64,000 nucleotides of DNA from a virus. Its lineage: Duplodnaviria; Heunggongvirae; Uroviricota; Caudoviricetes. The stretch spans positions 101,573 through 165,572 of IMG/VR virus record IMGVR_UViG_3300017707_001811. One strand, written 5' to 3'. Position numbers and translations under genes: made by a program. The notes under the pieces are model-generated. The model did not search any database and was not told where the DNA came from. It worked only from the letters and a program-made list of their open reading frames with translations. Every line of letters begins with the position of its first letter. The stretch's first letter is position 1. Below, piece by piece: positions 13,388 to 43,742 of the stretch.

Positions 13388-13439
13388 AGTTAATGATAAA
13401 TATTTTTTTTTTAAAAAAAATCAAATATTTATTTGATAC

Positions 13440-13465
13440 TACCAATTTCTTGCCGTAAGTTTGTA
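13440..13465 (+). promoter_or_regulatory. promoter copy 1 (TAAGTTTG -7 box at 13456-13463)
   Basis: ccgTAAGTTTGtaaaagatttga, a module also present at 13660 and 13768. Confidence 0.5.
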
Positions 13466-13550
13466 AAAGATTTGACACTTATAGGTGATGAAAGATACTC
13501 GGTAGTTAAATCAAAAAGTTCTTGTTTTATTTAGAAGATTGAAAATACTT

Positions 13551-13620
13551 CACGGGTGGCTCCCTTAATAGTTAAGGCTGACCTTAAACATCCACTCTAA
13601 AGTATACAGGGGGCGAAAGT
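13551..13620 (+). repeat. conserved about 63-nt RNA-like module, copy A
   Basis: GGCTCCCTTAATAGTTAAGGCTGACC, then 25 nt, then AGGGGGCGAAAG; copy B at 27079-27142 is 23/26 identical with the same 25-nt spacing. Confidence 0.6.
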
Positions 13621-13639
13621 GAAAAAAAATATTAATTTA

Positions 13640-13671
13640 TTTGACAGATTGAAAAAAATGTCGTAAGTTTG
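13640..13671 (+). promoter_or_regulatory. promoter copy 2: TTTG/TTGACA (13640-13646), 17-20 nt spacer, TAAGTTTG (13664-13671)
   Basis: Matches both the Bacteroidetes TTTG-N19-21-TAnnTTTG and a sigma70-like TTGACA-N17-TAAGTT geometry. Confidence 0.6.
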
Positions 13672-13748
13672 TAAAAGATTTGAGATTAAGGTTCACAAAG
13701 TGGTAAAACGATGAAAGTTTCCAAATCTCAAAAAAGTTCACAAATAAC

Positions 13749-13779
13749 TTGACAAATAGAAATAAATGTCGTAAATTTG
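13749..13779 (+). promoter_or_regulatory. promoter copy 3: TTGACA (13749-13754), 17 nt spacer, TAAATTTG (13772-13779)
   Basis: Third tandem copy of the same module, about 50 nt upstream of the ORF-free RNA region. Confidence 0.6.
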
Positions 13780-13830
13780 TAAAACAATTCGGAAATGTCC
13801 GAAACGTTCTTTGAAAAAATAGATTATCCA

Positions 13831-14740
13831 TTCTCTGAGTAAGTCGTATTCCCGCCTTCGTGTGACGAATATGAGCACTGAAAAGAGATAAACGATAATG
13901 GGCCGTGTATGGTCCTTAAATAAACTACGAAAGTAGGATAAAGTGGTCTCCCCCGTGTTGAGGAGGCTGCGGTTTGAAACCCCGTAAGGGGAATTGAACT
14001 CAAGTACACAAGTGGGATATCACCACACCTTTAGTACCGAGGGTAACACTGTAGGGAAAGTGGTAGGGTGACATGGCAATGTGGATTGTCAAGTTGAGTT
14101 CGGAAGAACAATAAGAATAACCCATAGGAATCAAGTAAGAAGTATAGTCATCCAACTATATAATTGCGGATTCCAATATGATAGAATACTTAAAACCGAA
14201 AGGTAAGGTAGAGAACGAGTGGTGTCGCTACTACCCCTAAGGATGACCTACCAAGGTCGCTTTCTGAAGTAATCTAAAAATATGGAGGTGGGGACACTTC
14301 ACGGAGTAGTTTAGTATTCTGTCACTCAAAAGGAGACGGAGCTTACGGTGGACCACTACTCTGACACATCCACGACACAAAACCTATTAATTTCACTGTT
14401 AATGAAAATTTAATACTAAAAATTACAAGGAAAAGTGTCCATCAGGTTTGAGTGAAAGGTGACTACATAGTAATGAGCCGTTCATTGCACACAAAGACCC
14501 CAAGTCAATGTGTATTGTTAAGAAAGACCTTTAATCCCGCAAGGACGAACTGGGGTGGCAACCTCGGAAAGAGTTAAGTACTGATAGAGTAATTCAGACC
14601 TCAAGGAGTGGTATACCTAAAAGACCGTCACTGAGAAATACTTCTCAAAAGGAAGTGGATACGAAGGGAACTAATAATCCTTCAAAAGATTCTCAATCAA
14701 AGCTGTAATCTCAGGCTTCGTTTAACTTAAAATATTATAT
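13831..14740 (+). ncRNA. large (about 0.9 kb) structured RNA of unknown class
   Basis: No ORF of 60 aa or more on either strand; GC well above flanks; several GNRA-capped hairpins (CCCC-GTAA-GGGG at 13980, GG-GCAA-CC at 14556, CC-GAAA-GG at 14196). Three tandem promoters lie upstream and a tRNA plus an intrinsic terminator lie downstream. Confidence 0.5.
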
Positions 14741-14812
14741 TGTGGGATAGAGCAGAGGTAGCTCGAAAGGCTCATAACCTTTAGGTCGGGGGTTCGAATC
14801 CCTCTCCCGCTA
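14741..14812 (+). tRNA. tRNA-Met(CAT)-like with U1-U72 mismatch
   Basis: Acceptor TGTGGGA/TCCCGCT (6/7 bp), D stem GAGC/GCTC, anticodon arm AAAGG-CTCATAA-CCTTT, T arm GGGGG-TTCGAAT-CCCTC. Confidence 0.55.
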
Positions 14813-18730: not shown

Positions 18731-20593
18731 ATGGGAAAAATAATAGGTATTGACTTGGGAACTACAAATTCTTGCGTAGCGGTTATGGAAGGTAGTGACC
18801 CTGTAGTAATTACAAACAGTGAAGGAAAAAGAACCACCCCTTCAATTGTCGCATTTGCTAATGGTGGTGAAAGGAAAGTTGGTGACCCTGCTAAACGACA
18901 GTCGGTTACTAACCCTGATAAAACAGTGTATTCAATTAAAAGATTTATGGGAACTAGCTTTGAAGAAAGTAAAAAAGAAGCTGGCAGAGTCCCATACAAA
19001 ATTATAAATGGTAACAATACACCTAAAGTTGAAATTGATAAAAGAAATTACTCACCACAAGAAATTTCGGCAATAGTACTCCAAAAGATGAAACAAACTG
19101 CTGAGGACTATCTTGGACAAGAAGTAACTGAGGCTGTAATTACGGTACCTGCATATTTTAATGACGCTCAAAGACAAGCGACAAAAGAAGCTGGTGAGAT
19201 TGCAGGACTTACAGTAAGAAGAATCATAAACGAACCAACTGCCGCGGCTCTTGCGTATGGTTTAGATAAGAAATCTAAAGATATGAAAGTTGTAGTATTT
19301 GACTGTGGTGGTGGTACTCATGATGTATCCGTACTTGAACTTGGAGACGGTGTATTTGAAGTACTCTCAACTGATGGAGACACTCATCTTGGTGGTGACG
19401 ACTTTGACCAAGCAATTATTGATTGGTTAGTTATGGAATTTAAAGATGAAAATGGATTGGATTTAAAACAAGACCCAATGGCACTTCAAAGACTTAGAGA
19501 AGGAGCTGAAAAGGCAAAAATTGAACTTTCATCATCACCGTCAACTGAAATTAATTTACCATATATCATGCCAGTTGATGGAATACCAAAACATTTAGTA
19601 CGTACTCTATCTCGAGCTAAATTTGAACAATTAGTTGACGAATTAGTTAAAAGAACAATTAAACCATGTGAGTCGGCTTTAAAAAATGCAGGACTTAAAG
19701 TTTCTGAAATTGATGAAATTATTTTAGTTGGAGGTACAACAAGAATTCCTGTTATTCAGGATGCGGTTAAGAAGTTCTTTGGAAAAGAACCGTCAAAAGG
19801 GGTTAACCCTGATGAAGTAGTCGCTTTAGGGGCGGCTATCCAAGGAGGAGTTTTAGCTGGTGATGTTAAAGATGTGCTACTTTTAGATGTCACACCACTA
19901 TCACTTGGTATTGAAACAATGGGTGGGGTTTTTACAAAGTTGATTGAGGCAAACACAACTATCCCAACCAAAAAGTCACAAGTATTCTCAACCGCTGTAG
20001 ATAATCAACCATCAGTTGAAATCCATGTATTACAGGGTGAAAGAGCTATGGCTAAAGACAACAGAACCATTGGTCGTTTCCATCTTGACGGATTACCACC
20101 AGCAATGAGAGGTATTCCACAGATTGAGGTAACATTTGATATTGATGCTAACGGTATTATTAATGTGTCGGCATTGGATAAAGGAACCAATAAACAACAA
20201 AATATTCGAATCGAATCTTCTTCAGGACTTTCAAAAGAAGAAATTGAAAAAATGAAAAAAGAGGCTGAAATGAATGCGGAATCTGATAAGAAAATTAAAG
20301 AAGAGACTGAAACAATTAACAAGGCAGATTCAGTAATTTTCCAAACCGAGAAGGCTTTAAAAGATTTAGAGGATAAAATTGGTGACGAAGATAAAAATAG
20401 AGTGATGGTTGCTTTGGAAGAATTAAAAACCGCACATCAGAATAGAGACGTAGAAAAGATTAATTCTTCTATTGATAATGTTAATAACATCTTTCAAGGA
20501 ATAAGTCAGAATATATATCAACAGATGTCAGACATTGTGAACGAAGATAAAGATGTTGAGGTAACCGATGTTGATTTTGAAGAAGTTAAGTAA
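18731..20593 (+). CDS. dnaK: chaperone DnaK (Hsp70)
   Basis: [14 protein letters not shown] and [12 protein letters not shown] ATPase motifs; full-length 620 aa Hsp70 architecture. Confidence 0.95.
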
Positions 20594-20650: not shown

Positions 20651-21220
20651 ATGAAGGTAATATTTTTAGACCACGATGGGGTTATTTGCTTATCAAATAA
20701 CTGGGGGTCACGATTTAAGAAACAAAAGAAATATAGAAAAAAATTGAGTCAATCAGTAATGACAATGCCTCTTGATGCTCGTTTTGATAACTTTGATAAG
20801 AAAGCGATTAAGGTGTTAAATCAAATCTTGGAACAGACTGGTGCTGAAATCGTTGTTTCTTCCGATTGGAGGATTTGGTGTTCAGTTGAGGAAATGGGTG
20901 ATTATTACGAAAGTCATGGAATTATCAAACGTCCAATTGATTTTACAGGTAATGTTATTGATGAATCAAAAGTTACATGGCACCGAAATTGGGATTTGGA
21001 AGGAACAAGGAGTTTGGAAATCCAAGGTTGGTTAAAAGAACACCCTGAGGTAACACAATGGGTAGCTATTGATGATTTGAATATGGGTAAAAAAGGTCTA
21101 CACTACTCAACGGAATTTGAACACGAATGGGGGTTAGATAATTTTGTACATACTCCTCTTAGAAATGAAGGTATAAAACAAGTTGGTATTAAAGAAAAAA
21201 TTTTATCATTTTTAAAATAA
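20651..21220 (+). CDS. HAD-superfamily hydrolase-like protein
   Basis: N-terminal FLDHDGVI (DxDG motif I). Confidence 0.4.
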   Translation: MKVIFLDHDGVICLSNNWGSRFKKQKKYRKKLSQSVMTMPLDARFDNFDKKAIKVLNQILEQTGAEIVVSSDWRIWCSVEEMGDYYESHGIIKRPIDFTGNVIDESKVTWHRNWDLEGTRSLEIQGWLKEHPEVTQWVAIDDLNMGKKGLHYSTEFEHEWGLDNFVHTPLRNEGIKQVGIKEKILSFLK

Positions 21221-24878: not shown

Positions 24879-25274
24879 ATGTTAAAAGAAAGAATCAATG
24901 CCGACTTTATGTCCGCATTTAAAAACAAGGAAACTGAAAAGAAAAACTTTTTGGGTGTGGTTAAGGGTGAGATTCAGAATGAGGAAGGTCGCTCTGGTGT
25001 TGCTAACGATGATGTGGTTGTTGCGATTTTGAGAAAGATGGAAAAATCTTTAACTCAAACTGGAACACCTGAAGCATTAAAGGAATTGGAATATATCAAA
25101 CCATATCTTCCATCTCAAATGGGTTCAGATAAAATCCGTGAAATTATCTCAAACTATAAAACCAATGGTCTAACCAATGTCGGTCAGATTATGGGTGAGT
25201 TCAACAAGAACTTCAAAGGTCAAGCAGATAACAAAATCGTATCAGAAATCGCAAAAGAAGTTTTGGCAGGTTAA
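24879..25274 (+). CDS. GatB/YqeY-domain protein
   Basis: Co-linear with E. coli YqeY (MLKERINADFMSAFKNKE...AILRKMEKS...KPYLPSQM...NFKGQADNKIVSEIAKEVL). Confidence 0.75.
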   Translation: MLKERINADFMSAFKNKETEKKNFLGVVKGEIQNEEGRSGVANDDVVVAILRKMEKSLTQTGTPEALKELEYIKPYLPSQMGSDKIREIISNYKTNGLTNVGQIMGEFNKNFKGQADNKIVSEIAKEVLAG

Positions 25275-25297: not shown

Positions 25298-25720
25298 ATG
25301 GAAAAAGAATTTGTCACATATGAGATTGGTTTAGAACTCAAGAATCTTGGGTTTAACGAACGTTGTTATGGATGTTTCAGTCATTTGGACAACAAGGAGT
25401 TATGGACAAGTAGGGTATACACCAACGGAGTATCTGAAAATATTGCGGCACCAATCTTCTCACAGGTATTCGGATGGTTTGAAGATAATTATTCATATTT
25501 TGTGGATATTAGAACTGACACCACACCAAATGAGATTTTGGGATTTGACTATACGATTAAGAGTTGGAAGTTTCCACCAATGTATTTTGATTTCTTCAAT
25601 GATAAGAGAGAAGGAAACATTGAGGTCATCAAGAAGATGATTAAAATGGCGAATAAAGAAAAACAAAAGGAGGCTCTTATTGATTTAATTAATTTGGATA
25701 ATGACGATAAAGATAAATAA
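25298..25720 (+). CDS. hypothetical protein
   Basis: ORF starting 4 nt after the TACTTTTG -7 box at 25286-25293. Confidence 0.4.
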   Translation: MEKEFVTYEIGLELKNLGFNERCYGCFSHLDNKELWTSRVYTNGVSENIAAPIFSQVFGWFEDNYSYFVDIRTDTTPNEILGFDYTIKSWKFPPMYFDFFNDKREGNIEVIKKMIKMANKEKQKEALIDLINLDNDDKDK

Positions 25721-26024
25721 TATGACACAGAAACAACAAGACGCAATTGATAATATAATGGACAACTTCAAGTTTGAACAAGTCCGAAAAGTAATGGAAC
25801 TATTGGATTGGGAATGGGCGGGAACTGAAGAAGGTGTTCCAACCATTCCTGAATTGAGACGAGAAGCAAGACGACTATTAAAAATGTCGTTTGAAGAAAA
25901 AACAAACGTATCAACAGGTGGATTCCACGTAATGTACGAATCAAATGATGACGGAGAGTTTATTCAATTGATGTTTGCGGTTGAAGAATGGTATGAAGAA
26001 ATAGAAGAATATTTGGAAGAATAA
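25701..26024 (+). CDS. hypothetical acidic protein
   Basis: ORF only. Confidence 0.4.
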   Translation: MTIKINNMTQKQQDAIDNIMDNFKFEQVRKVMELLDWEWAGTEEGVPTIPELRREARRLLKMSFEEKTNVSTGGFHVMYESNDDGEFIQLMFAVEEWYEEIEEYLEE

Positions 26025-26035
26025 GAAAGTTGTTA

Positions 26036-26043
26036 TATCTTTG
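26036..26043 (+). promoter_or_regulatory. TATCTTTG -7 box with no ORF downstream; likely promoter of an ncRNA starting near 26050
   Basis: Same motif as upstream of more than 15 genes; followed by 500 nt without an ORF. Confidence 0.5.
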
Positions 26044-26047
26044 TTGA

Positions 26048-26439
26048 AGTTCTTTGAAATTAGGAAATTAAAGTGTTTAACGGCAGATTTTGATATAAGT
26101 GTTAGAGAGGATAAAAATCTATGAAACTTATAAGACAATTAGGAAGAGTTATCTTTACGTTGGGAGCTAAAAGTGGAGATAATAAAGTATCTATAACCGT
26201 TAAACCTTTTAAAATATTGATAGTGGTTTTCCCCACTCAACGGATGTCGACAATCTAGATTGGAATCGGAATTCATCACCATCAGCCGAGGCCTCGTAAA
26301 ACTACGATTAAGCTGTTAAGATTGGGACGAGACGGGTATCCCAACACTGTCAACAATATTGTGTTGTTCCCTTGAGAAAGGAAGATTGCGGAGATGAACA
26401 GTAAGCTCACAACACAGAGGACTTCTCATCCTCAAACAT
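26048..26439 (+). ncRNA. structured ORF-free RNA region upstream of the tRNA-mimic element
   Basis: Numerous short perfect hairpins (CGAGGCCTCG, GGGA..TCCC, CAACA-ATATTG-TGTTG, GAGGA-CTTCTCA-TCCTC); no ORF. Confidence 0.4.
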
Positions 26440-26537
26440 AGTCAGGTGGCGGAATTGGCGCCAAAGTTAAGGTGTGTTAAGGCGTGACCCGTTGAGGACC
26501 ATCCAATGACTTACAGGTTCGAATCCTGTCCTGACTT
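26440..26537 (+). ncRNA. tRNA-mimic/Y-RNA-like element copy 1 (98 nt)
   Basis: 5' AGTCAGG-TGGCGGAA...ACAGG-TTCGAAT-CCTGT-CCTGACT 3': perfect 7-bp terminal helix plus canonical T arm, but no resolvable anticodon arm. Confidence 0.5.
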
Positions 26538-26552
26538 CTAAATTTAAAAGAT

Positions 26553-26777
26553 ATGAATAGAACACTTGAAGAAATTGTGAAAACACCAGAATTAACTGAC
26601 GGTACTGAAGTCACATTCAGAGTTGTAAATGAAACTTTCAATGGTAAAATTGTAGGTAAATCATCCGATGGATTGATGCCGTATTACATCGTTGAATGTA
26701 CTGATGGGTCATTTCCAAATGAAATGTATAAGTATAAATTCTTATCTTTACCACTTAGTGAAATATTTGTTAAGTGA
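26553..26777 (+). CDS. hypothetical small protein
   Basis: 74-aa ORF between the two tRNA-mimic copies. Confidence 0.3.
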   Translation: MNRTLEEIVKTPELTDGTEVTFRVVNETFNGKIVGKSSDGLMPYYIVECTDGSFPNEMYKYKFLSLPLSEIFVK

Positions 26778-26785
26778 TAAAAAAT

Positions 26786-26866
26786 AGTCAGGTGGCGGAA
26801 ATAGTATCTCTATAATATACTTGATGAGGTATGAGGTTGACTCAGTATTAGTTCCTATCCTGACTA
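26786..26866 (+). ncRNA. tRNA-mimic/Y-RNA-like element copy 2 (81 nt, no T arm)
   Basis: Same 17-nt 5' end ATAGTCAGGTGGCGGAA and 3' end CCTATCCTGACT as copy 1, with an unrelated interior. Confidence 0.4.
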
Positions 26867-27078
26867 CAATGAGTAAGAGGTACTCAGAGTCTTCGAATCA
26901 AGACTTAAAGAATGATTCCGCAGAATGTCTACGGCGTGAGTGGGACATCGTGGGATAAAGGGATAGACACATTCCCTCCCAGTAGTGTTGGATGTTTTTA
27001 ACGGGGATGCCCAGCAGGTTTTTAAGAAATAGAAAACCGATATGACTACTCATTTGTAATCTCAGGATGGGGAAAGCA

Positions 27079-27142
27079 AGGGCTCCCTTAATAGCTGTGG
27101 CTGACCACGGGCGTTGCTTGTTCCGTTATATAGGGGGCGAAG
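27079..27142 (+). repeat. conserved RNA-like module, copy B
   Basis: GGCTCCCTTAATAGCTGTGGCTGACC, then 25 nt, then AGGGGGCGAAGA; paralogous to 13551-13620. Confidence 0.6.
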
Positions 27143-27191
27143 ACGGAACTTTTTAGTAATTATTTATAGGTATTTATAAATAAAATAGAAT

Positions 27192-27650
27192 ATGAAAATT
27201 ACTAAAATTGGAAAAAAAGGTTTGGAATTAATTAAATCTTTTGAAGGTTTAAAATTAAAACCTTATTTGTGTGATGCGGGAGTGCCAACAATTGGTTTTG
27301 GAAATACTTTTTATGAAAATGGTAAAAAGGTCACATTAAATGACCAAGTGATTACTGAACAAAGAGCAGTTGAATTACTTGAATATTCATTATTAAAGTT
27401 TGAACAATATGTTGATTCATATTGTCGTGATGATATAAACCAAAATCAATTCGATGCATTAGTTAGTTTTTGTTATAATTTAGGACCTGTTAATTTAAAA
27501 AATAGTACTTTATTGAAAAAAGTTAATAAAAACCCTAATGATATAACAATTAGAAATGAGTTTATGAAGTGGAATAAAGCAGGCGGAAGAGCTTTGAAAG
27601 GATTAACTAAAAGAAGAACCGCTGAAGCTGATTTATACTTCAGTAAATAG
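27192..27650 (+). CDS. endolysin, GH24 lysozyme (T4 e / lambda R family)
   Basis: GLELIKSFEGLKLKPYLCDAGVPTIGFGNT catalytic region. Confidence 0.85.
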   Translation: MKITKIGKKGLELIKSFEGLKLKPYLCDAGVPTIGFGNTFYENGKKVTLNDQVITEQRAVELLEYSLLKFEQYVDSYCRDDINQNQFDALVSFCYNLGPVNLKNSTLLKKVNKNPNDITIRNEFMKWNKAGGRALKGLTKRRTAEADLYFSK

Positions 27651-27734
27651 AGGTGGTCCGAATGGACGAGGAGCTTGTCTTGAAAACAAGTAGGTCGGTA
27701 ACACGATTTGGGGGTTCGATTCCCTTCGCCTCTG
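27649..27734 (+). tRNA. tRNA-Ser(TGA)
   Basis: Acceptor AGAGGTG/CGCCTCT, anticodon arm CTTGT-CTTGAAA-ACAAG, long variable arm, discriminator G. Confidence 0.7.
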
Positions 27735-28068: not shown

Positions 28069-28142
28069 GTGTCTATAGTGTTAGCGGTCTAGCACGAAGG
28101 GTTGTGGTTCCTTTAGCACCAGTTCGAATCTGGTTAGACACA
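28069..28142 (+). tRNA. tRNA-His(GTG), G-1 and CCA encoded
   Basis: Acceptor GTGTCTA/TAGACAC preceded by G, anticodon arm AAGGG-TTGTGGT-TCCTT, T arm ACCAG-TTCGAAT-CTGGT, then A-CCA. Confidence 0.75.
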
Positions 28143-33052: not shown

Positions 33053-34678
33053 ATGGCTAAATTCAGAAACACAGGATTAAAAGAGAAGTTGGACTCTACA
33101 AAACCAAAGAAAAATCTCGTCGCAAAAATGTCGGTTCCTAAACCAAACACAACTAACCTACAAGGTTATGAAGCTTATGATATCGATAATTGGCTACGAC
33201 TAATCTCACTGTTAAACACATCAAAACTTCAACCACAATTTTATCGTTCAGAGAATGATACAATGCGTGAACTGAAGAAATTAATTGATGTATGTGGTAA
33301 AGAAGACCCATACTTCGCGGCACAGTGTATTGTATACTCTCGTTGTGTCGGAGAAGGTATGCGTTCAATCAACCACTTGGCGGCCGTTTACTTGGCACCA
33401 TATATGAGTGGTAAAGAATGGTCAAAACGTTTCTTCTCCGTATGGGATAAGAAAAACCAAAAAGGTGGAACGATTTTCCGTCCTGATGATATGGCAGAAA
33501 TCGTTGCGGCATATACTGCGATGAATGATAAGAGTATCACAAACGCAATGAAAAAAGGTTTCCGTGAAGCACTTGAAAAAATGGATGCTTATAGTCTGTT
33601 AAAGTACAAATCGGCAGTACTTGACATGATTAATTTGGTACATCCAGACCCAAATGAATCAAAAGCTCTTGTTGATTACATGGATAAAAAAGTACCAGCG
33701 TTCGAAGCAATCATTAAAGGGTATAATGTATCTGCGGATACTTGGGAAGTTGCACAATCTGACGCAGGTCAAATTGTTGCACAAGCGGTTCGTGAAGGTA
33801 AACTCTCAGAATCAGAAGCTAAAGAAGTATTAACTGAACAAAAGTCAGAAAACTGGAAAGGGTTATTGACTGAAGGTAAGTTGGGTATTTTGGCCGCTAT
33901 TCGAAATATGAGAAACATTCTTACCAACAAACCTGAGGCGAAAACAATTGACACTCTGTGTGATTTGGTTTCAAATCCTGAATTGATTAAAAAAGGTAAG
34001 ATTATGCCATACCAACTTGACTTGGCAAATGAAGTAATGAACTCTGAGTTTAGTGATACTAACTCAAGAAAGTTGTCAAAAGCTTTATTGACAGGTTATG
34101 AGTTGGCGGTTCCGAACCTTAAAGAACTACTTACAGGTAACAACCTTGTAATCATTGATATGTCAGGTTCTATGGACACTGAAGTACTTGACCCTAACAG
34201 AAAAACAAATTACAAGAGTACTTGTATGGATAAAGCAAGTCTAATCGGAATGACAATTGCTAAGGCGACAAATGCAGATGTTATCCGTTTCGGTTCAAGT
34301 GCTGAGTATATTACTTATAACCCTAACCAAGATGTGTTCAGTTTGGCAAAATCTATCCGTAAAGGAATGGGTGGTACAAACTTGTCACAAGCTTGGGCGA
34401 AGGCTCAAAGTTCAGGTAGAAAATACGACCGTGTTTTTATCTTGTCTGACAATGAGTGTAACATGGGTTCAACATACCGTAATTATACAAGTTATGTTGA
34501 AAAGGTTGGTGACCCATACGTATATTCAATTGACCTAGCATCTTACGGAACTACCGCAATTGCAGGACCTAAAGTAAGATACTACTACGGTTATGGATAC
34601 TCAATGTTTGATGATATCGCTAAGAGTGAGTTCAACCCAAACTATCATATTGAAAAAATCCGTAAGATTGAAATTTAA
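33053..34678 (+). CDS. rsr: Ro60/Rsr orthologue (TROVE domain plus C-terminal vWA/MIDAS)
   Basis: 541 aa. Co-linear matches to vertebrate/bacterial Ro60: N-terminal N..G..AY....L.RL..LL...FYRSE, KIMPYQLD (Ro60 RIHPFHIL), vWA DMSGSMDT, GGTNLSQAWAKAQ (Ro60 GSTDCALPMLWAQ), YDRVFILSDNECN (Ro60 ADIFIVFTDCETN), C-terminal GYGYSMFDDI (Ro60 GFDSGALDVI). Confidence 0.8.
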   Translation: MAKFRNTGLKEKLDSTKPKKNLVAKMSVPKPNTTNLQGYEAYDIDNWLRLISLLNTSKLQPQFYRSENDTMRELKKLIDVCGKEDPYFAAQCIVYSRCVGEGMRSINHLAAVYLAPYMSGKEWSKRFFSVWDKKNQKGGTIFRPDDMAEIVAAYTAMNDKSITNAMKKGFREALEKMDAYSLLKYKSAVLDMINLVHPDPNESKALVDYMDKKVPAFEAIIKGYNVSADTWEVAQSDAGQIVAQAVREGKLSESEAKEVLTEQKSENWKGLLTEGKLGILAAIRNMRNILTNKPEAKTIDTLCDLVSNPELIKKGKIMPYQLDLANEVMNSEFSDTNSRKLSKALLTGYELAVPNLKELLTGNNLVIIDMSGSMDTEVLDPNRKTNYKSTCMDKASLIGMTIAKATNADVIRFGSSAEYITYNPNQDVFSLAKSIRKGMGGTNLSQAWAKAQSSGRKYDRVFILSDNECNMGSTYRNYTSYVEKVGDPYVYSIDLASYGTTAIAGPKVRYYYGYGYSMFDDIAKSEFNPNYHIEKIRKIEI

Positions 34679-34681
34679 TAA

Positions 34682-34710
34682 ATTGGGAGGATAGCTCCTC
34701 CCAATTATTT
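34682..34710 (+). terminator. intrinsic terminator after the Ro60 gene
   Basis: TTGGGAGG-ATAG-CTCCTCCCAA followed by TTATTT. Confidence 0.7.
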
Positions 34711-34713
34711 AAC

Positions 34714-34859
34714 ACTCAGGTGGCGAAAGTGAGAACATTCTAGATAATGACTCCTGGTAGACGTAACATATGGTTATAGCAATGTGGGTTAAAAATCATC
34801 TGAACAAGATGTGGTCACTATAATGGCAGCCCGTGGAGGTTCGAATCCTTCCCTGAGTA
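34714..34859 (+). ncRNA. tRNA-mimic/Y-RNA-like element copy 3 (146 nt), immediately downstream of the Ro60 gene
   Basis: 5' ACTCAGG-TGGCGAAAG...GGAGG-TTCGAAT-CCTTC-CCTGAGT-A 3'; same GGTGGCG D-like motif and same architecture as copies 1-2. Confidence 0.55.
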
Positions 34860-35014
34860 CCAATCGTTACTATTAAGTAACAACCCAACCAAGGGCAATG
34901 CGGGTTCATACCTGCGGAGCAAGGTGACGACCAGGAAAGACTGGTATATTTATGATTATGTATAATTTTATAAAAATAGATATTTTAATAATATTTATTA
35001 TTATAACAATTATT

Positions 35015-35806
35015 ATGGGTAAAAGATTTGTCATTACTGAAGAAGAAAGAAAAGAAATAAAAAAACAACACGGTATTGCAGAAGATTGGTGGGACGATAC
35101 TGTTGAATTTCTTAAAGACACAGGTGAAAAAATAGGAGATTTTGTCTCTGATATTTTTACTGATAGTGATGAAGAGGAGAGTAAAGATGCAGAAGACCTT
35201 AAATCATCAGATTTTTCTTCAGAAGAGAAAAAAGAAATTGAGAAAAAATTAGAAGATACTAAGAAAGAATTATCTTCAAAAATAACAGACTCAAGTTTAA
35301 AAGGATTTAACTTTGATAAGATACCTGATGGTAAAAATAACTACAGGTCGGCTCAAATAACTGCTGATTTGATTCCATTGGTTATTAAAAAGTATGGTAT
35401 TAAGAGAATTATAAGATTTAATGGTGATGACGGAGACGCTAAACATGCGGGTAAACAAGGTCCGAGCATTAGTGAAGAAAAACGTATTTGTGAGAGTAAT
35501 GGATGTGAATTTTATAAATTATCATCAACTAGAAACCAAGATAAAGTTAATTCTTTATTAAAACAAGGTAATACTCTAATACATTGTGCTCACGGTGCGG
35601 ATAGAACAGGTGGTAATGTTGGTGGTTATCTATATGATATAGGATGGGGAGACACAAAAAAAATATGGGATTATACCACAAAATACAATTCATGGGAAAA
35701 TATGGTAATTAATAACCCATCTAAGTTTACAAATGGAGGTTATTTAAATCAAGCCAAAAAGTTTGGGGTCAAAGATATAGAACAAGCTAAAAAATTAAGT
35801 AAATAA
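35015..35806 (+). CDS. protein-tyrosine/dual-specificity phosphatase-like protein with a conserved N-terminal module
   Basis: CX5R motif IHCAHGADRTG; N-terminus MGKRFVITEEERKEIKKQHGIAEDWWDDTVEFLKD is paralogous to the N-termini of 52966..53841(-) and 41335..42642(-). Start set to the internal Met. Confidence 0.55.
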   Translation: MGKRFVITEEERKEIKKQHGIAEDWWDDTVEFLKDTGEKIGDFVSDIFTDSDEEESKDAEDLKSSDFSSEEKKEIEKKLEDTKKELSSKITDSSLKGFNFDKIPDGKNNYRSAQITADLIPLVIKKYGIKRIIRFNGDDGDAKHAGKQGPSISEEKRICESNGCEFYKLSSTRNQDKVNSLLKQGNTLIHCAHGADRTGGNVGGYLYDIGWGDTKKIWDYTTKYNSWENMVINNPSKFTNGGYLNQAKKFGVKDIEQAKKLSK

Positions 35807-36366: not shown

Positions 36367-36415
36367 TACCTTTGTCAAACAATTCAGTAAAGACTGAAAC
36401 GTTCTTTGAAAAATT
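36367..36415 (+). promoter_or_regulatory. tRNA-cluster promoter (TACCTTTG -7 box) plus shared motif gaaacgttctttgaaaaa
   Basis: TACCTTTG at 36367-36374; the 18-mer GAAACGTTCTTTGAAAAA (36397-36414) recurs at 13801-13818 just upstream of the large RNA. Confidence 0.5.
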
Positions 36416-36427
36416 AAAAAAATTGAC

Positions 36428-36452
36428 GTAGTAAGAATAGAGTTACTTCGCA
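36428..36452 (+). repeat. hairpin repeat R1 (AGTAA-N8-TTACT-TCG)
   Basis: gtagtaagaatagagttacttcgca, followed by a T-arm-like minihelix ATTGG-TTCGAAT-CCAAT. Confidence 0.55.
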
Positions 36453-36575
36453 TATTGGTTCGAATCCAATATTTGCCGCAATTTTGGCAGATTAGACAAA
36501 TGGATAAGTCGACGGTCTCATAAACTGTTATAGAAAAACAACCTCTACTCGTTTTCTCGTCATAAAATATTGATT

Positions 36576-43667: not shown

Positions 43668-43742
43668 GAAGAAGTAGCTCAGACGGTAGAGCATAGGGTT
43701 AGAAATCCCTTGTGCCGCGAGGTTCGATTCCCGCCTTCTTCA
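43668..43742 (+). tRNA. tRNA with irregular anticodon arm (4-bp stem with 8-nt loop TTAGAAAT, or 3-bp stem with anticodon AGA) and a bulged T stem
   Basis: Acceptor GAAGAAG/CTTCTTC perfect, D stem GCTC/GAGC, T loop TTCGATT, discriminator A. Confidence 0.45.

Follow-up and report, generated by a model that had tools for sequence, protein, structure and literature searches.

We analysed a 64,000-nucleotide (nt) stretch of DNA from a large phage (IMG/VR record IMGVR_UViG_3300017707_001811, positions 101,573 to 165,572; hereafter the window) and in particular the locus around positions 26,036 to 27,191, in which an initial annotation made from the sequence alone had noticed two tRNA-mimic elements, here called copy 1 and copy 2. 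Both belong to a phage-specific, multi-copy and structurally constrained family of elements that derives from tRNA-Leu and has no decoding capacity. The two copies enclose a gene for a conserved protein of 74 amino acids (aa) and are bordered on their outer sides by conserved non-coding modules, with a candidate promoter upstream and a terminator-like hairpin downstream. In the following list, numbers with the prefix L denote loci fetched for comparison, L001-L120 being those around matches to the family 15-mer described below, and R1 is a covariance model of the family built from 62 members.

26012 to 26043, + strand: candidate Bacteroidota-type promoter, TTTG (26012-26015), 20 nt, TATCTTTG (26036-26043), as read from the sequence
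26207 to 26354, + strand: module U1, a conserved non-coding RNA-like block (GATAGTGGTTTTCCCC...GGGACGAGACGGGTATCCCAACA) with relatives in L064, L011 and L097
26355 to 26436, + strand: module U2, with invariant ends (GTGTTGTTCCCTTGAGAAAGGAA ... ACAACACAGAGGACTTCTCATCCTC), a hypervariable middle and homologues in 13 other loci
26440 to 26537, + strand: copy 1, a tRNA-like element (R1, Rfam tRNA model, fold)
26553 to 26777, + strand: conserved 74-aa gene (29 homologues, AlphaFold2 (AF2) model)
26786 to 26866, + strand: copy 2, a derived tRNA-like element (R1 at the two ends, conserved interior)
26867 to 27075, + strand: module D, a structured RNA of ~210 nt, CAAUGAGUAAGAGG... to ...AAUCUCAGGAUGGGGAAA (7 homologues, compensatory changes)
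27120 to 27154, + strand: terminator-like hairpin, GTTCCGT(16-nt loop)ACGGAAC followed by TTTTT, as read from the sequence; putative terminator

Bacteroidota promoters have the -33/-7 consensus TTTG / TAnnTTTG. A -7 box had been placed at 26036 by the initial annotation, and TATCTTTG is indeed present at 26036-26043. Since this octamer begins 12 nt past the stop codon of the open reading frame (ORF) at 25701-26024, has TTTG 20 nt upstream and is present at 10 sites in the window (4.6 expected), with 9 on the + strand, a promoter at 26012-26043 is plausible from its fit to the consensus, although unproven. A scan for sigma-70 promoters and terminators was uninformative for this type of organism, and the consensus terminator scan missed the hairpin at 27120-27154, which lies 37 nt upstream of a lysozyme gene (27192-27650), because its loop is longer than 8 nt.

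The -7 box had been thought to have no ORF behind it. However, the 74-aa ORF at 26553-26777 is genuine: its product has 29 homologues at 58-97% identity, most of them 72-76 aa in length, and the AF2 model confidently predicts a small beta barrel (predicted local distance difference test score, pLDDT, of 91), which would be of a generic SH3/Tudor-like type. The product has no Pfam hit and no PDB match at E<=0.001. In the locus described as ORF-poor, the non-coding stretches are rich in G+C (0.42-0.47, compared with about 0.30-0.36 in the adjacent genes), and that description left out both this conserved gene and the structured RNA modules at 26207-26436 and 26867-27075.

Copy 1 is a nearly canonical family member. 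As noted initially, it has a closing helix that corresponds to a 7-bp acceptor (AGTCAGG/CCTGACT), a perfect T arm (ACAGG-TTCGAAT-CCTGT) and no anticodon arm; the anticodon and variable arms are replaced by a 49-nt irregular hairpin, which forms the variable interior, or cargo, of this copy. It also has a short D arm (GGCG-GAATTGG-CGCC), U48, the discriminator U73, U(-1), and C74 at position 26538. The top R1 match in the window is located here (65.8 bits, E 7e-16), whereas the Rfam tRNA model (RF00005) gives 27.0 bits against a gathering score of 29; its alignment is confined to the acceptor, the T arm and the first part of the D arm, with the middle treated as an insertion. ARAGORN calls no tRNA at copy 1 or copy 2, and the Rfam tRNA model has no match at copy 2. 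The predicted fold of copy 1 has a free energy of -33.1 kcal/mol (z -2.1). Its D-arm variant recurs with a different cargo in L261, a metagenome contig from the one metagenome scan, and no relative of its cargo was found in IMG/VR.

Copy 2 is a conserved derivative that lacks the T arm. It has the 17-nt 5' end ATAGTCAGGTGGCGGAA and the 3' strand CCTGACT in common with copy 1 and a different interior, as originally described: one long hairpin domain takes the place of the D and T arms, and U(-1), A73 and C74 are present. Its R1 score (34.4 bits) is contributed by the two ends alone, and its fold is predicted at -22.9 kcal/mol (z -1.9). In L245 (2253-2333) and L256 the interior has been conserved, and its inner stem shows a compensatory change. 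Variants without a T arm, in addition to copy 2, occur in L013, L112 and L245.

The motif GGTGGCG[GA]AA, said to be shared by all three copies known at the outset, occurs exactly three times in the window (26445, 26791 and 34719), against 0.06 expected, and none of 100 shuffles reaches three. The third occurrence lies in the following element:

34714 to 34859, + strand: copy 0, a family-related element 35 nt past the Ro60 gene (R1 40.4 bits)

The acceptor of copy 0 (ACTCAGG/CCTGAGT) differs from the family acceptor by a compensatory change. In copy 0 a hairpin interrupts the D loop, GGCGAAAG lies close to the 5' end, U48 and A73 are present and CCA is encoded; its cargo is 76% identical to that of L034, a contig without Ro60. 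Two genuine tRNA-Leu genes of the window score 40.4 and 32.8 bits with R1, so that the scores of copies 0 and 2 overlap with those of real tRNA-Leu and their membership rests on the family-specific acceptor sequence. About 90 nt of hairpin-rich sequence lies between copy 0 and the next ORF (region 33053-34960), and a weak R1 match (36386-36474, 21.2 bits, G+C 0.28) is located just 5' of the third tRNA cluster.

A multi-copy family derived from tRNA-Leu

A search of IMG/VR with the 15-mer AGTCAGGTGGCGGAA identified at least 120 contigs, often with several elements per genome. The T arm and the 3' acceptor strand are intact at 129 of 142 occurrences of the 15-mer, giving elements of 66-278 nt (median 107). 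Their common layout is AGTCAGG-UG-GCGG-AAU(U)GGUAG-ACGC, a hypervariable middle of 17-200 nt, U48, ACAGGUUCGAAUCCUGU, CCUGACU and A73-C74. R1 detects 173 matches at E<1e-6 in 99 sources, with 4-9 copies in many contigs; the lower-scoring of these matches include genuine type II tRNAs. The proposal of a tRNA-mimic family with a conserved stem and a divergent core is therefore borne out, and the family is far larger than first noted.

The acceptor, D and T helices are maintained by compensatory changes. In the 150 best R1 matches, a set that includes some real type II tRNAs and whose alignment was fitted to R1, 98.7% of the cells in these helices are paired and changes on both sides are seen in 14 of the 15 helix pairs, a result that none of 500 shuffles and no slid control comes close to. 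The acceptor is exactly AGTCAGG/CCTGACT in 117 of 151 cases with the family-specific T arm, and the remaining acceptors are wobble or compensated forms (for example GGTCAGG/CCTGACC, AGTTAGG/CCTAACT and GGTGCAA/TTGCACC). Individual positions are also conserved among 123 distinct members (U48 in 92%, A73 in 88%, U(-1) in 84% and C74 in 97%); no covariation was seen between positions -1 and 73.

The resemblance to type II tRNA-Leu is close. The family D arm and loop are identical to those of E. coli tRNA-Leu (GCGG-AAUUGGUAG-ACGC), and U8, A14, A15:U48, G18G19, the T loop UUCGAAU and A73 are all present. In contrast to tRNA-Leu, the family has neither an anticodon arm nor a regular variable arm, the two being replaced by the unrelated middle, and cannot decode; both its acceptor stem, which is near-invariant and begins with A1-U72, and its T stem are specific to the family. 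In the genuine tRNA-Leu genes found on the same contigs, the acceptor and T stems differ from these and the anticodon arm is normal. When ARAGORN is run with introns allowed, the anticodons assigned to the elements are scattered over 22 categories, many of which are implausible or rare in bacteria. We rejected an intron-containing tRNA as an explanation because the exon-like parts end after the D arm and resume at U48, there is no conserved anticodon stem, and the ARAGORN anticodons are scattered in this way. A single closed cargo hairpin in place of the anticodon arm was likewise rejected as a general architecture, since the middles do not share a closing helix and only 9 of 115 have one at all, compared with 12% of shuffles.

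Known RNA families do not account for the locus: Rfam searches at gathering and permissive thresholds gave no Y RNA, RNase P, ROOL, group I intron or ribozyme there, and across the locus, the whole window and 24 related loci only tRNA, GOLLD (elsewhere in the window) and one transfer-messenger RNA (tmRNA) were matched. The tmRNA (68.5 bits) is located at L097 5724-6218, in the same array as several family elements. Like the family, tmRNA has a tRNA-like acceptor and T-arm module split by a large insert and occurs in phage tRNA arrays, but the family has a U-A pair at 3:70 instead of the G3.U70 alanine identity pair, has a full D arm, and lacks a tag reading frame and pseudoknots, and the copies give no Rfam tmRNA match. 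Inside the tRNA array of L121 (5845-6027), the closest Ro60-bearing relative, there is a match to archaeal RNase P RNA that stays below threshold (35.6 bits against a gathering score of 84, E 3e-7); no counterpart of it was detected in the window. Two variant arrangements were also seen. In L023 (1912-2070) and L031 (5114-5360) the 3' acceptor strand of the element is split by an insertion of 50-110 nt that contains GGTA(T)AGAAAT, and a second tRNA-like type, GGCTATG...TGGTGGGAGGCCACCCATA...GCGGGTTCAACTCCTGC-CATGGCC, is present directly 3' of family elements in L013, L039, L075 and L093.

Among the 120 listed matches to the 15-mer in 596 Gb of bacterial and archaeal genomes, five are true members and almost all of the rest are due to chance. 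The five are located on four short contigs of metagenome-assembled genomes binned as Sediminibacterium, Flavobacterium, Neisseriaceae and Peregrinibacteria. The 70-nt family consensus has no blastn match in GenBank phages, and the locus has none in cultured GenBank phages. A full-text literature search found no description of such a family; the coverage of this search was incomplete and is no proof of novelty, but the family apparently has not been described so far.

Gene context, mosaic boundaries and cargo conservation

Like punctuation marks, the elements separate tRNAs, other structured RNAs and small ORFs, from which they are set off by short, fixed distances. At our locus, the ATG of the 74-aa gene lies 15 nt past copy 1 (16 nt past the acceptor strand) and its stop codon 8 nt before copy 2. 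Homologues of this gene lie between two elements in L244/L246 and L245, have an element upstream in L247 and one downstream in L243, and have none on either side in L248-L250; their leaders are A-rich and 12-16 nt long, and their trailers measure 4-8 nt. L245 resembles the window in that elements and ORFs alternate (element, ORF, element, ORF) up to a lysozyme gene. More generally, an ORF of at least 50 aa starts within 30 nt past the element in 36 of 126 members (mode 15 nt), compared with 33 of 238 real tRNAs.

The non-coding modules show the same tight abutment. The blocks related to module U1 in L064, L011 and L097 are 77-91% identical, and in L011 and L064 the module comes straight after a tRNA-like 3' end. 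Module U2 stops 3 nt ahead of copy 1, and about two thirds of 13 copies checked (the one in the window included) have a tRNA or tRNA-like 5' end 2-4 nt downstream. Module D begins at C74 of copy 2; compensatory changes relative to its 7 homologues elsewhere are found in 19 of 33 predicted pairs. A tRNA-type 3' end lies 0-3 nt upstream of it in 8 of 8 copies and a tRNA or tRNA-like 5' end 2-12 nt downstream in 7 of 8, the exception being the copy in the window, which is followed by the terminator-like hairpin with its T run. None of U1, U2 and D has an Rfam match. Modules U (26207-26436) and D (26867-27075) recur in phage tRNA arrays (L011, L019, L027, L064, L080, L097, L121 and others), where they nearly always abut tRNA or tRNA-like genes. 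A third conserved non-coding module, which contains TAGTATGCC(C)AATA(C)GATGAGAA and again has no Rfam match, is located between family elements in L245 (3250-3490) and also occurs downstream of elements in L086, L106 and L247.

The nucleotides next to the presumed cleavage sites are similar in the elements and in real tRNAs: U(-1) occurs in 84% of the family and 68% of real tRNAs, and a C74 that is not followed by CA in 97% and 88%, respectively. This agreement is expected if the same maturation enzymes act on both. In the genuine tRNAs of these phages (L001-L120 and the window), the last base called by ARAGORN, taken as position 74, is C in 88%, and this C is followed by A or T and not by CA, suggesting that real tRNAs and the family share an unusual 3'-end rule.

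The conserved ends of the elements coincide with mosaic boundaries. In DNA sequence, the 74-aa genes of the window and L251 are 96-97% identical, as are those of L244 and L245, in unrelated surroundings; the identity starts in, or just past, the 3' strand of the upstream element and ends in the conserved 5' part of the downstream element. In an all-against-all comparison of loci, 33 of 164 internal ends of blocks with at least 90% identity fall within 12 nt of an element, against 2.7% expected from coverage. Homology is not resumed after 20 of these ends, and in the other 13 it is resumed beyond the element, so that only the interior is swapped. Such swaps occur between genomes that are otherwise 91-94% identical, as in L020 versus L030.

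Several cargos are conserved themselves, and some of them are likely to be functional judging from their patterns of sequence change. Cargo A occurs in five contigs; its 8-bp stem has been retained, with two compensatory pairs, whereas the T stems of its carriers differ. Relatives of the interior of copy 2 and of the cargo of copy 0 were described above. Searches within the window for antisense or guide targets of the middles gave only chance-level matches.

Interpretation of the elements and alternative explanations

The reading that we favour, with a probability of roughly 0.5, is that copies 1 and 2 derive from tRNA-Leu, do not decode, and function both as sites of tRNA-type processing and as junctions for recombination, and that some cargos have functions of their own. 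The locus would be expressed as a single transcript, extending from about 26040 to about 27155, from the Bacteroidota-type promoter. The host tRNA maturation enzymes would cut this transcript at both elements, with cleavage between U(-1) and A1 by RNase P and between N73 and C74 by the tRNA 3' endonuclease, releasing the module U RNA, tRNA-like RNA 1, a short-leader mRNA for the 74-aa protein, tRNA-like RNA 2 and the module D RNA. The freed tRNA-like RNAs may have their own functions through their cargo. At the DNA level, homologous recombination could use the ends of the elements as junctions and so reshuffle cargos, RNA modules and gene cassettes, as the 25-nt ends are near-identical in all copies and across phages.

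Several considerations weigh against this interpretation. The case for processing is drawn from resemblance and context, and copy 2, with no T arm, and copy 1, with U73 and a shortened D loop, may be poor substrates. The acceptor and T-arm sequences are conserved beyond the needs of RNase P and RNase Z, which would call for an additional sequence-specific partner or for homogenisation by recombination. The enrichment of adjacent ORFs is only about twofold over real tRNAs, and many of the 20 boundaries without resumed homology come from the gene family used to fetch the loci, so that the number of independent cases is small. Finally, the conserved cargos suggest that in some subfamilies the cargo may be under selection instead of the processing site.

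Known systems provide partial parallels. In mitochondrial tRNA punctuation, the mascRNA at the 3' end of MALAT1 and the tRNA-miRNA transcripts of gammaherpesvirus 68, tRNA shapes allow RNase P and RNase Z to free neighbouring RNAs, and the tRNA-like by-product is stable. The family resembles these systems in its tight abutment to ORFs, tRNAs and RNA modules, but they are eukaryotic, organellar or animal-viral and the processing considered here is putative; the family also differs in being multi-copy, with a hypervariable insert and strong sequence conservation. The PeSL motifs of T4-type phages consist of promoter and terminator stem-loops between small ORFs (PMC2839356, PMC4122927). Both these and integron attC sites are, like the elements, short conserved repeats between small accessory ORFs at which homology blocks start and end, with cassette-like shuffling. 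Neither is tRNA-like, however, and attC is a recombinase substrate, whereas no dedicated recombinase is implicated for the family. By analogy, the closest counterparts would be tRNA punctuation and mascRNA-type processing at the RNA level and the PeSL motifs at the DNA level.

A more general and tentative extension is that phages of (probably) Bacteroidota possess a 'tRNA-connector' system, in which a handle for RNA processing, stabilisation and possibly leucylation is combined with a DNA homology junction. One frame derived from Leu-tRNA would be repeated many times per genome, with cargo RNAs, RNA modules and gene cassettes being interchangeable, giving a tRNA-based analogue of integron or PeSL cassettes in which the Y-like RNA next to Ro60 would be one cargo among others. 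If the family is expressed and processed in the way proposed above, it would constitute a widespread class of phage RNA that is absent from Rfam, and it would exemplify tRNA-type punctuation of polycistronic bacteriophage transcripts. It would give access to the question of how the structured RNAs found alongside GOLLD-type RNAs in phage tRNA islands, which lack annotation, are released, and would offer a concrete mechanism by which cassettes are shuffled in the accessory regions of these phages. tRNA finders miss members or mis-call them as odd tRNAs, so that phage tRNA counts would be inflated or confused.

An alternative that we regard as possible, at a clearly lower probability, is that the elements are functional small RNAs on a tRNA scaffold, in which the activity resides in the variable middle, as a decoy, a regulatory domain or a domain that binds protein, the frame resembling Leu-tRNA serves only for folding, processing and stability, and punctuation and recombination are side effects. 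In the engineered tRNA scaffold of Ponchon and Dardel, a cargo RNA reportedly replaces the anticodon arm and the chimera is processed and stabilised like a tRNA; that design is man-made, whereas the family is natural. A scaffold is favoured by the cargo subfamilies conserved across phages with compensatory changes, such as cargo A with its two covarying pairs, by the conserved interior of copy 2 in L245 and L256, and by the recurrence of the copy 0 cargo in L034, but most cargos have no detectable relatives or common architecture, that of copy 1 included, no antisense targets emerged in the window, and interiors are exchanged between otherwise similar genomes. It is improbable, from the sequence features considered here, that canonical members are CCA-tailed and charged by leucyl-tRNA synthetase (LeuRS) as non-decoding Leu-tRNA-like molecules, which might sequester LeuRS or EF-Tu, protect their own 3' ends or donate Leu to a transferase. 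LeuRS does not read the anticodon. Variants of tRNA-Leu without the anticodon and variable arms are still leucylated, provided that A73 and the D/T-loop contacts are present (PMC9976931), and the family retains the E. coli identity set, namely A73, U48 (pairing with A15) and the D loop AAU(U)GGUAG with G18G19 and A20a. The presence of these nucleotides could, however, be due simply to descent from tRNA-Leu and to what the elbow requires, the identity rules are those of E. coli and not of Bacteroidota, and neither copy fits them, since A20a is absent from copy 1, whose discriminator is U73, and copy 2 is without D and T arms. Decay of tRNAs into functionless pseudogenes left by duplications within tRNA arrays is highly improbable. 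It is true that the elements are interspersed with tRNA genes, have no anticodon arm and reach Rfam tRNA scores close to or under the threshold, but neutral decay would affect every arm equally, whereas the acceptor, D and T arms are 97-99% paired, with compensatory changes, and only the middle varies. The same design, with U(-1), U48, A73 and C74 kept in 84-97% of members, is found in at least 120 contigs, the terminal helix is conserved in related phages, and both the copy 2 interior and the copy 1 D arm recur elsewhere.

The initial annotation had interpreted copies 1 and 2 as Y-RNA paralogues, which would bind the phage Ro60 through the terminal helix and differ in their effector loops; this is very unlikely on the evidence assembled here. 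In its favour, the window does encode a Ro60 homologue with TROVE and vWA domains (33053-34678), and copy 0 with its GGCGAAAG follows it. The bacterial Y RNAs termed YrlA are tRNA mimics encoded within 4 kb of Ro60 and on the same strand, with GNCGAAN0-1G near the 5' end as a putative Ro60 contact; their RNA ends form the Ro60-binding stem, and the stem that resembles an acceptor lies internally, as a stem-loop (Chen et al. 2014, PMC4201824). YrlA of M. smegmatis is cleaved by RNase P and has CCA added to it, and YrlA has been found in phages (PMC4201824). YrlA and the family are alike in being non-coding RNAs with tRNA-like D and T arms, but the ends of copies 1 and 2 form a plain 7-bp acceptor, and the order of D arm, cargo and T arm is that of a normal tRNA. 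Copies 1 and 2 lie on the same strand as the Ro60 gene and end 6.5 and 6.2 kb upstream of it, and both carry GGCGGAA in place of GNCGAAN0-1G; copy 0 alone lies within 4 kb of Ro60 and matches the motif, by means of GGCGAAAG. A tblastn search with the Ro60 of the window found no homologue in 1.06 Mb around 120 family loci, L034 included. Rfam, for which the one match at copies 1 and 2 was the sub-threshold tRNA match to copy 1, gave no family other than tRNA at E<=10 in 25700-27700 or 34500-35100, and no Y RNA or YrlA at E<=0.5 across the whole window. Furthermore, the Ro60 genes nearest to that of the window (L121 and L122, 72-79% identity) have a different tRNA-like RNA downstream, and in L121 an ordinary family member is located 1.8 kb past that RNA. 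The absence of Ro60 around the 120 loci, together with the distance, motif and topology, argues that the family as a whole is not one of Y RNAs. No more than one type of cargo would be related to Ro60: copy 0 is the one plausible Y-RNA-like case, which narrows the Y-RNA question to this copy as the only candidate Ro60 partner.

Genomic setting and probable host

A protein with a type IX secretion CHU_C domain is encoded in the window. This domain and the TAnnTTTG motifs point to Bacteroidota as the probable host. ARAGORN detects 23 tRNA genes in the window, and Rfam finds two further tRNAs that are absent from the ARAGORN list (28069-28142, 53.3 bits; 43668-43742, 52.0 bits). Genes for a HAD domain of the kind seen in 'Swiss Army Knife' RNA-repair proteins, a protein resembling YqeY/GatB and a full-length Hsp70 surround the tRNA arrays:

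20651 to 21220, 24879 to 25274 and 18731 to 20593: genes around the tRNA arrays (HAD, YqeY, Hsp70 group)

Together with Ro60, these genes form an RNA-centred accessory island. A GOLLD RNA that covers the full Rfam model (316.8 bits) is located at 14302-14717 of the window, with a tRNA-Met 24 nt downstream (site 14302-14812); the 900 nt 5' of it (13400-14300) have no long ORF and may represent the variable 5' half of GOLLD.

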